From: Escherichia coli
GTDB taxonomy: Bacteria > Pseudomonadota > Gammaproteobacteria > Enterobacterales > Enterobacteriaceae
DNA length: 51,502 nucleotides
Assembly (NCBI RefSeq): GCF_048403405.1
Contig: NZ_CP183133.1
Direction: 5' to 3' (one strand)
Position numbers and translations under genes: made by a program. The notes below the pieces were generated by a model. The model was not told the origin of the DNA, ran no database searches, and saw only the letters and a program-made list of their open reading frames with translations. Of the stretch, positions 49,277-51,502 are shown one piece after another (the first letter of the stretch is position 1; each line of letters opens with the position of its first letter).

Positions 49277-50197
49277 CTACATTTTCTCCCTGGCATATAG
49301 CGAATTTATTGCCAACGCTGCCGCTGCGGTGCGATTGTCCACACTCAGCTTTGGAAATACAATTTCAAGGTGTTTATTCACGGTTCTGGGGCTAAGGTTT
49401 AAAATATCGCCAATTTCGCGGTTTGTTTTTCCCCTGGCAATCCACAGGAGGACTTCGGCTTCTCGTTGCGTCAGCCCTAGGTTGTTTTTCAGGCGTTTCA
49501 CCGCTTCGACTTCTTCATGTCCTTTGATCTCTTCAATACGTAGCAAACTTTCTCCTTCAGCGGTCCGGCGTGAAAGATAGAATTTCAGAGCGATGCCTTG
49601 CGATGAAAGATCTAAGGGTATTTTTAAACCTTCCGTATTGTTCAGCCAACCGATGATCCGGTTTACTATTTTTTTATTGGGTTCATACCCGGTATCGCTG
49701 AAGTTTTTCATCAGTTGCCATGCATTGGGCGTGGCCCAGCGTAGTTGCCCCTCTTTGCTAAAAACACATAAGGTCTGGCCAACGGAATCCATCGCGCTAT
49801 AGGCACTGACCGTTAATTTTGAGTTCCGCAAGTGGGTACGCATTCTGACAACCAGCTCTTCCGTGCGTATCGGCTTAATTACGTAATCGACCACCCCGGC
49901 ATCAAATGCATCAACGATATTCTGCGTATCACTCAGGCCTGTCATGAAAATAATCGGGGTATGCCGCAGCCCCGGATTTTGCCGCAGGCGCTTACTGGTT
50001 GAAAACCCATCCAGATGCGGCATTACGGCATCAAGCAGAATGATATCCGGGGTTATCTGGCTGGTTATCGAAAGGGCTTGATTACCCTCCAGAGCGACCA
50101 GAACGGTAAAACCGGCTTCATCAAGCGTGTCATTCAACATACTTACCGTGTTGATATCATCATCGACGATAAGTACCGTCGGCTTTGCTATTGCCAT
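49277..50197 (-). CDS. Response regulator: REC domain, central domain of unknown function, C-terminal LuxR/GerE-type HTH
   Basis: Start MAIAKPTVLIVDDD with RBS GGAGAG; C-terminus …LTQREAEVLLWIARGKTNREIGDILNLSPRTVNKHLEIVFPKLSV…. Confidence 0.75.
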   Translation of the reverse strand: MAIAKPTVLIVDDDINTVSMLNDTLDEAGFTVLVALEGNQALSITSQITPDIILLDAVMPHLDGFSTSKRLRQNPGLRHTPIIFMTGLSDTQNIVDAFDAGVVDYVIKPIRTEELVVRMRTHLRNSKLTVSAYSAMDSVGQTLCVFSKEGQLRWATPNAWQLMKNFSDTGYEPNKKIVNRIIGWLNNTEGLKIPLDLSSQGIALKFYLSRRTAEGESLLRIEEIKGHEEVEAVKRLKNNLGLTQREAEVLLWIARGKTNREIGDILNLSPRTVNKHLEIVFPKLSVDNRTAAAALAINSLYAREKM

Positions 50198-51502
50198 TTT
50201 TCTCTCCCTCCGGGCGTTCAAGACTCTCGACTATCTCTTTGAATCGAAAGCGCCTCAGCAACTCGGCAAATTTTTCGCCCTCGGCTTTGCTGATCTGGTT
50301 AGCGGAAATATGTTTGTCCAGCAGTTCACGAAACCCTCTCACATAACCCAATCTGGCCATCTCTTTTAACGACTCAATCTGGACACGGGTAAGCTGCGAG
50401 CGTGGTTCATGTATTTCCGGCTGCTTTGGCGGCTGACATTCCGTGCGCCACTGGAGATGCAATATTTCACCGATGTTCTCCAGTAGTAAAGGGAAACGCA
50501 GCGGTTTAACCAGGTAGCGAACTTCCCCTTCGCCAGTGAAGTGGCGGCATTTACCCTCATCCGCTTCCGCAGAAATCATAATTACCGGCGCTAATTGTCC
50601 CTTATTACGTAACTGACGTAGCAGTTCCCACCCCGACATTTCAGGCATTGCAACATCCAGAAGAAGAAGGTCGATATGATTTTGCCGGGCTAAATGTAGC
50701 GCGACATGACCATTTTCGGCTGTTAGCAGCGTGAAGCCTATGGGCGTGAGTAAATCCATCATCAGCTGCCGATGGGATTCATCATCGTCAACTACCAGCA
50801 GGGTGTGTCGCTTGCCTGGATATCCGGTGATTACCGCAGGCTCGGCGGGTTGGTAGGCATCCCCGCTATAGCTTGGCAGCATCAGGGTGAGTTTAAACGT
50901 TGTGCCTTCGCCACGGATGCTTTCCACCTGGAGATCGCCACCCATGATATAAGTCAGAAGCCGGGTAATCGTCAGCCCAAGGCCCGTCCCGATCCGACGA
51001 CTATCGCCGGATACGCGTTCGAAAGGCTTAAAGATGCGTTCCAGGTTCTCAGGGGCGATGCCGATGCCGGTATCGTGAACCGAGAAAAACGCCACCTCGC
51101 TACGATACTGGAAATCGAGGGTTACACTGCCTCTGTCCGTGAATTTAACCGCATTAGAAAGCAGATTGATAAGAATTTGCCGGAGGCGTTTCTCATCCGT
51201 CATCACCGCCTCGGGCAGCCAGTGTGGGGCGTTGTAGTGAAATGTCAGTCCTTTATCGCTGGCCTGTTGTTCAAACATGGCGACCAGTTGCTGCACCAAA
51301 TCGCCAATGCGCACTTCTTCACGATATATTTCTAATTTTCCCGCTTCAATTTTCGAAATATCCAGTAATCCCTCAATTAGATTAGCCAGATGCTCGCCGC
51401 TTCTGCGCATAATACCGATACCGCGCTGCCGGGCTGGAGGGATATCATCAGCACGTTCGAGTAATTGCGCATAACCCAGCATCGCATTGAGCGGCGTTCT
51501 GA
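50160..51502 (-). CDS. Hybrid sensor histidine kinase (HisKA, HATPase_c, C-terminal REC), partial in the window; continues at 1..812
   Basis: Translation …[16 protein letters not shown]…[22 protein letters not shown]…[10 protein letters not shown]…[18 protein letters not shown]…; frame runs off the window end. Confidence 0.75.
   Translation of the reverse strand, partial: [446 protein letters not shown]

Follow-up and report, generated by a model that had tools for sequence, protein, structure and literature searches.

A probable complete circular IncR plasmid whose sequence record opens within an IS26-truncated hybrid sensor kinase gene

The window, by which we mean the whole stretch of 51,502 bp that was analyzed, consists of a 21-kb IncR maintenance backbone and a 28.8-kb fec/amidase module, joined by two identical inverted copies of IS26. 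Parts of a single gene remnant, encoding a hybrid sensor histidine kinase/response regulator, lie at both of its ends. The features referred to below are the following.

1..812, minus strand: 5' part of the kinase remnant, residues 410-679 and the first base of the Leu680 codon
813..1632, minus strand: IS26 copy 1, 820 bp, with the tnpA stop at 867..865; the identical sequence in plasmid pCREC774-2 carries the annotation IS26
857..859, minus strand: in-frame TTG within IS26, 5 nt past the tnpA stop (867..865), the only start available to the kinase remnant
1633..22674, no strand: IncR backbone segment including Tn3-, IS3-, and IS5-family remnants, ~99.9% identical to pEclE4-2
10933..12420, minus strand: retA/ltrA, reverse transcriptase within a group II intron
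12826..13257, plus strand: umuD
13257..14528, plus strand: umuC
14610..15584, minus strand: parB
15584..16789, minus strand: parA
17650..18516, minus strand: repB, the same as WP_004118283.1, "replication initiation protein" of the IncR-typed pEclE4-2, in a region of 99.9% identity
19594..20370, minus strand: resD
22014..22657, plus strand: vapBC/vagCD
22675..23494, plus strand: IS26 copy 2, tnpA on the plus strand, identical to copy 1 and inverted relative to it
23495..51502, no strand: main part of the accessory module, which continues into 1..812 (28,820 bp in total) and matches Klebsiella IncFIB/FII plasmids
49277..50197, minus strand: intact response regulator of 306 amino acids with REC and a LuxR/FixJ-type HTH
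50160..51502, minus strand: 3' part of the kinase remnant, 100% identical to pKqq_SB98_2

The 3' piece of the kinase gene (50160..51502) starts with the second and third bases of the Leu680 codon, continues through residue 1126 to a stop at 50160..50162, and encodes the rest of the HisKA domain, HATPase_c, REC, and a C-terminal helical region. The 5' piece (1..812) includes the last transmembrane segments, a cluster of nine cysteines (residues 495-532), and the H-box His678, and base 812 is the final base of the broken codon 409. An intact version of the gene is carried by pKqq_SB98_2 (NZ_CP084805.1, locus L001) at 29659..33039 on the minus strand and encodes a protein of 1126 amino acids, WP_004181991.1. 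The window product corresponds exactly to the C-terminal portion of that protein, residues 410-1126 (717 of 1126, the 3' 64% of the gene), and IS26 stands in place of the 409 missing residues, 1-409. The original prediction had divided the gene into 50160..51502 and 1..812 and attributed the loss of its N terminus to IS26 at 813. Both statements hold, including the coordinates and the stop codon; the element does begin at 813 and spans to 1632, and a continuous homolog of the joined protein, which had been proposed as a test, is found in the kinase of pKqq_SB98_2.

In the identical full-length protein, Pfam places HisKA (PF00512) at residues 668-734 (E=3e-15), HATPase_c (PF02518) at 781-888 (E=4.8e-25), and the receiver domain REC (PF00072) at 915-1022 (E=4.4e-22). 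His678 sits in the motif ITHELRTP, and the HisKA domain is complete only with the window ends joined. By a simple hydropathy scan, the first ~620 residues of the intact kinase form a multi-pass membrane region with ~12 hydrophobic segments, for which neither a Pfam match nor a sequence relative in the PDB at E<=1 was found. None of the NCBIfam equivalogs, TorS, ArcB, BarA, and RcsC among them, reached its curated cut-off with the kinase, the best score being that of TorS (321.3 bits against a cut-off of 676.5). The literature on the function of this kinase or on this plasmid provided background only.

The window ends with ...GGCGTTCTGA and opens with GTTCATGAGT..., and no terminal direct repeat or residual overlap is left at its ends. 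On the minus strand, bases 51501-51502 (GA) and base 1 (G) form, as their reverse complement, the codon CTC for Leu680, two residues past the phospho-accepting His678. Both this junction codon and the canonical H-box that emerges upon joining the ends had been predicted correctly, the join completing HisKA around His678. Joining 50160..51502 to 1..812 yields 2155 nt in one minus-strand frame, comprising 717 sense codons without a single internal stop and a terminal stop. Such a continuation had been regarded as unlikely by chance, an argument which, as far as it drew on the open frame, was weaker than stated (~5%). When the window end was joined to every other window position, 4.9% of these alternative joins were open for the same 271 codons, because the window is dense with real genes, and openness of the frame alone is therefore only modest evidence for true adjacency.

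Chance is excluded by homology instead. A 600-nt query centered on the join was contiguous at 100% identity in 349 of the 350 matching PLSDB plasmids, nearly all of them from Klebsiella, and the gene at these matches is named "hybrid sensor histidine kinase/response regulator" or "ATP-binding protein." Window positions 23495..51502 correspond to 2993..31001 of pKqq_SB98_2 and positions 1..812 to 31002..31813, the latter at 100% identity. Bases 51502 and 1 thus map to the neighboring positions 31001/31002 in this plasmid, and they map to 19588/19589, likewise neighbors, in the Escherichia coli plasmid pCREC774-2 (L003). Taken together, 23495..51502 and 1..812 give a single 28,820-bp match to pKqq_SB98_2 with two differences, at window positions 30877 and 48736, each a long way from the junction. 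Homology rather than the open frame is the decisive evidence against a chance continuation. At position 48736, which lies within an IS91-family transposase fragment, the window carries a one-base deletion relative to both pKqq_SB98_2 and pCREC774-2.

For the backbone, the list of nine IncR genes given in PMC7707992 was mapped from pEclE4-2 (L002, NZ_CP048698.1) onto the window ORFs, and all nine (vagCD, resD, repB, parAB, umuCD, and retA) were present. The single repB, matching that of an IncR-typed plasmid, is the sole replication gene in the window. With an IncR repB and the full set of nine backbone genes, the earlier designation as an "IncR-like backbone" is right. Chromosomes occasionally harbor IncR backbones as well (PMC7707992), a point against reading the window as a plasmid. 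The annotation transferred from matching records to the whole window contains no antibiotic resistance gene. Among IncR plasmids this is unusual; in place of resistance, the accessory genes here serve iron uptake (fec) and the catabolism of amides.

The backbone segment also contains several repeats and mobile element remnants. The IncR "retA" belongs to a group II intron at 10933..12750 on the minus strand, recognized by Rfam RF02005 at 12525..12750. A tandem array at 8924..9718 comprises 21.5 copies of a 37-bp unit (93% matches) and is overlapped only by mechanical ORFs; staggered alignments suggest ~7.5 more of these units in the window than in pEclE4-2, so that the unit number would differ between the plasmids. 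Two further arrays, 10.4 units of 36 bp at 17184..17559 between parA and repB and 22-bp repeats at 18501..18559 just upstream of repB, are candidates for the centromere or the iterons of the IncR replicon. An IS3-family transposase remnant at 3602..4327 on the minus strand includes an IS1222-type programmed frameshift element (RF00383, 4210..4327), and a Tn3-family transposase fragment lies beside it at 1870..3690.

The accessory module carries an adh remnant, two copies of IS4321, fecIRABCDE, IS fragments, the response regulator gene, and the kinase remnant, and it further encodes an operon of amiC/amiR-like genes, an ABC transporter, and an acetamidase/formamidase. It has no replication gene. 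A functional plasmid fec system carried via IS elements (PMC8187952) and an amiC/amiR acetamidase operon on Klebsiella plasmids (PMC13209695) have both been described. The IS4321 copies (IS110 family; 24754..26161 and 45755..47161) are 99.7% identical, lie in inverted orientation, and flank the fec and amidase operons; if they recombined, ~19.6 kb would be inverted.

Both copies of IS26 are recognizable as this IS6-family element by their length of 820 bp, their 14-bp terminal inverted repeats GGCACTGTTGCAAA, and a single tnpA, the transposase in the identical pCREC774-2 sequence being WP_001067855.1. Copy 1, whose terminal repeat GGCACTGTTGCAAA starts at 813, truncates the kinase gene on one flank and an isochorismatase-family gene on the other. 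Copy 2 lies 17 bp past vapC, and a zinc-binding alcohol dehydrogenase gene has lost its first 11 codons to it. At neither copy was an 8-bp target duplication detected, direct or inverted (flanks ATTTAAGC/ACGCACGT and AATTTCCG/AGTACATC), and none surrounds the whole module in the window or in pCREC774-2. Such duplications would be missing if the copies sit at deletion or recombination junctions, and with none in either plasmid, the structure cannot be traced back to one clean transposition or inversion. The directly oriented IS26 copies and/or flanking 8-bp duplication of an IS26-bounded composite or pseudo-compound transposon were seen in neither plasmid, the copies being inverted in both. The same module with both of its IS26 junctions does occur in more than one replicon (the window and pCREC774-2), as would that of such a transposon.

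Within PLSDB and the complete E. coli genomes, only pCREC774-2 (NZ_CP183141.1, 154 kb, Taiwan) has the IS26 junctions of the module in common with the window. It contains the entire module with both of its IS26 junctions, and the IS26 copies there are likewise inverted; its module measures 28,728 bp, is 99.96-99.98% identical to that of the window, and falls within the loci L003 and L004, which span 7868..38235 of NZ_CP183141.1. The kinase|IS26 and IS26|adh junctions were absent from PLSDB, the vapC|IS26|adh arrangement was absent from the complete E. coli genomes, and no record in either collection has the full window arrangement. The vapC|IS26 junction alone is present in small E. coli IncR plasmids. 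Two PLSDB matches seemed to cover the IS26|adh junction and were rejected, as they consist of two pieces ~590 bp apart and represent a different junction.

We consider it very probable, on sequence grounds, that the window is a full circular IncR plasmid of 51,502 bp with an arbitrary origin inside the Leu680 codon of the IS26-truncated kinase gene. Since its ends are adjacent in one known gene, the source was circular, or it was circularized and trimmed by the assembler. The original prediction of a whole circular molecule is supported to this extent, the ends being adjacent in a continuous 28.8-kb homologous stretch. There is next to no probability left for a linear excerpt in which the in-frame continuation is coincidental. 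Its one point of support is the background of 4.9% of arbitrary joins that are also open for 271 codons, whereas the joined sequence is contiguous at 100% identity in 349 plasmids, the single match of 28,820 bp places the ends at adjacent bases, and the join completes one HisKA domain exactly; the first two of these observations exclude a chance continuation. A source with a tandem or duplicated structure, either a plasmid multimer or a larger molecule in which the module is present twice, instead of a 51.5-kb monomer, also seems very improbable. Monomers and head-to-tail multimers look alike by sequence alone, and IS26 activity generates duplications, which counts in favor of such a structure. 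Against it stand the lack of any residual overlap or repeat at the ends and the presence of one complete set of maintenance genes, including the multimer-resolution recombinase resD, and a monomer is the simplest reading.

A different concern is that the circle might be an assembly artifact, with 1633..22674 and 23495..812 residing on different IS26-bearing molecules that were joined via a collapsed 820-bp repeat. The unique segments are linked only by the two identical IS26 copies, which lack target site duplications, so that a false circle could have arisen in assembly. The half-junctions also exist apart: small E. coli IncR plasmids have vapC|IS26, pCREC774-2 has IS26|adh and kinase|IS26, and the combined arrangement occurs in no other record of PLSDB or the complete E. 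coli genomes. We nevertheless regard this as unlikely. The break of the window lies in unique module sequence, away from repeats, so that the adjacency of the ends holds whichever path through IS26 is true, and the module, lacking its own replication gene, has to be carried by a replicon. IncR backbones normally have IS flanks and are combined with accessory regions that vary (PMC7707992). Two identical 820-bp copies of IS26, two of IS4321, and three of IS5-family elements lie within the window, and a contig that passes through several such multicopy elements suggests long reads. Together with the non-round size, this fits a finished, probably long-read, whole-replicon record. The circular IncR plasmid thus remains the preferred reading, and the circle as assembled presumably exists as a physical molecule.

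Recombination mediated by IS26 probably built this plasmid. In the simplest history, an IS26-bounded block would have been cut from a Klebsiella F-type plasmid and then exchanged between replicons by IS26-mediated or IS26-homology-mediated recombination. IS26 at 813 has removed most of the transporter-like membrane input domain of the kinase, its native promoter, and the urt operon.

In the intact plasmids, the kinase gene is divergent from urtABCDE and lies upstream of the gene for the LuxR-type regulator, which it overlaps; in the window, the start of the response regulator gene (49277..50197) likewise overlaps the 3' end of the kinase gene. From this gene neighborhood, we infer that the intact kinase/regulator pair may sense urea or small amides via the transporter-like domain and control urt. 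The remnant has no complete input (sensor) domain, no start codon of its own, and no promoter, and no sigma-70-like promoter was found on the kinase coding strand in 1..1700, including outward from IS26. It is most likely a non-functional passenger. Since tnpA is on the same strand and an in-frame TTG follows its stop, expression of the remnant by read-through is conceivable, and PGAP starts a 733-amino-acid "ATP-binding protein" (WP_418507573.1) at this IS26 TTG in the identical pCREC774-2 sequence. It is tempting to speculate that a TTG-started sensorless kinase of 733 amino acids, read through from tnpA, might act constitutively on the adjacent LuxR-type regulator and change host gene expression, but we rate this as decidedly improbable. 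If it were true, conservation of the remnant with both IS26 junctions in two plasmids from different hosts would reflect selection.

For practical purposes, the window can be used as a whole circular replicon, in which features near either end are to be read across the origin, and the pieces at 50160..51502 and 1..812 should be counted as a single gene remnant rather than as two incomplete genes. The gene is split in the record because the arbitrary origin falls inside the Leu680 codon, an ordinary record-keeping effect that is routine for plasmid records. The truncated kinase allele is already present and annotated in RefSeq, and current understanding is not challenged. The window documents an IncR plasmid without resistance genes; as its accessory region it carries an IS26-bounded ferric-citrate/amidase module that also occurs in an E. 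coli plasmid. On a small scale, it illustrates how IS26 transfers metabolic and virulence-associated cargo between plasmids of the Klebsiella type and those of E. coli.

Compared with known IncR plasmids (the references pK245 and pHN84KPC, and here pEclE4-2), the window has the same gene order, ~99.9% identity, and an IS-flanked backbone, but its accessory region is the fec/amidase module of Klebsiella F-type plasmids, without resistance genes; this combination with an IncR backbone was not seen in PLSDB or the complete E. coli genomes. With TorS-, ArcB-, and BarA-type hybrid kinases, the window kinase has the HisKA-HATPase_c-REC core in common, whereas its scores fall far below their cut-offs, and neither Pfam nor the PDB gave a match to the N-terminal multi-pass membrane domain of the full-length protein. 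Residues 410-1126 are 100% identical to WP_004181991.1 of Klebsiella IncFIB/FII plasmids, with the same order of HisKA, HATPase_c, and REC, and the downstream LuxR-type regulator of these plasmids is likewise present; in contrast, the window copy has IS26 instead of residues 1-409, the promoter, and the divergent urtABCDE. In pCREC774-2, the IS26|kinase junction of WP_418507573.1 ("ATP-binding protein") is 100% identical to that of the window, but the module is embedded in an unrelated 154-kb backbone rather than in an IncR backbone. The regulator gene of pCREC774-2 is frameshifted by an additional T (window position 49384), and its fecR region is frameshifted by a ~90-bp deletion (window positions 33895..33975), whereas both the regulator and fecR are intact in the window.
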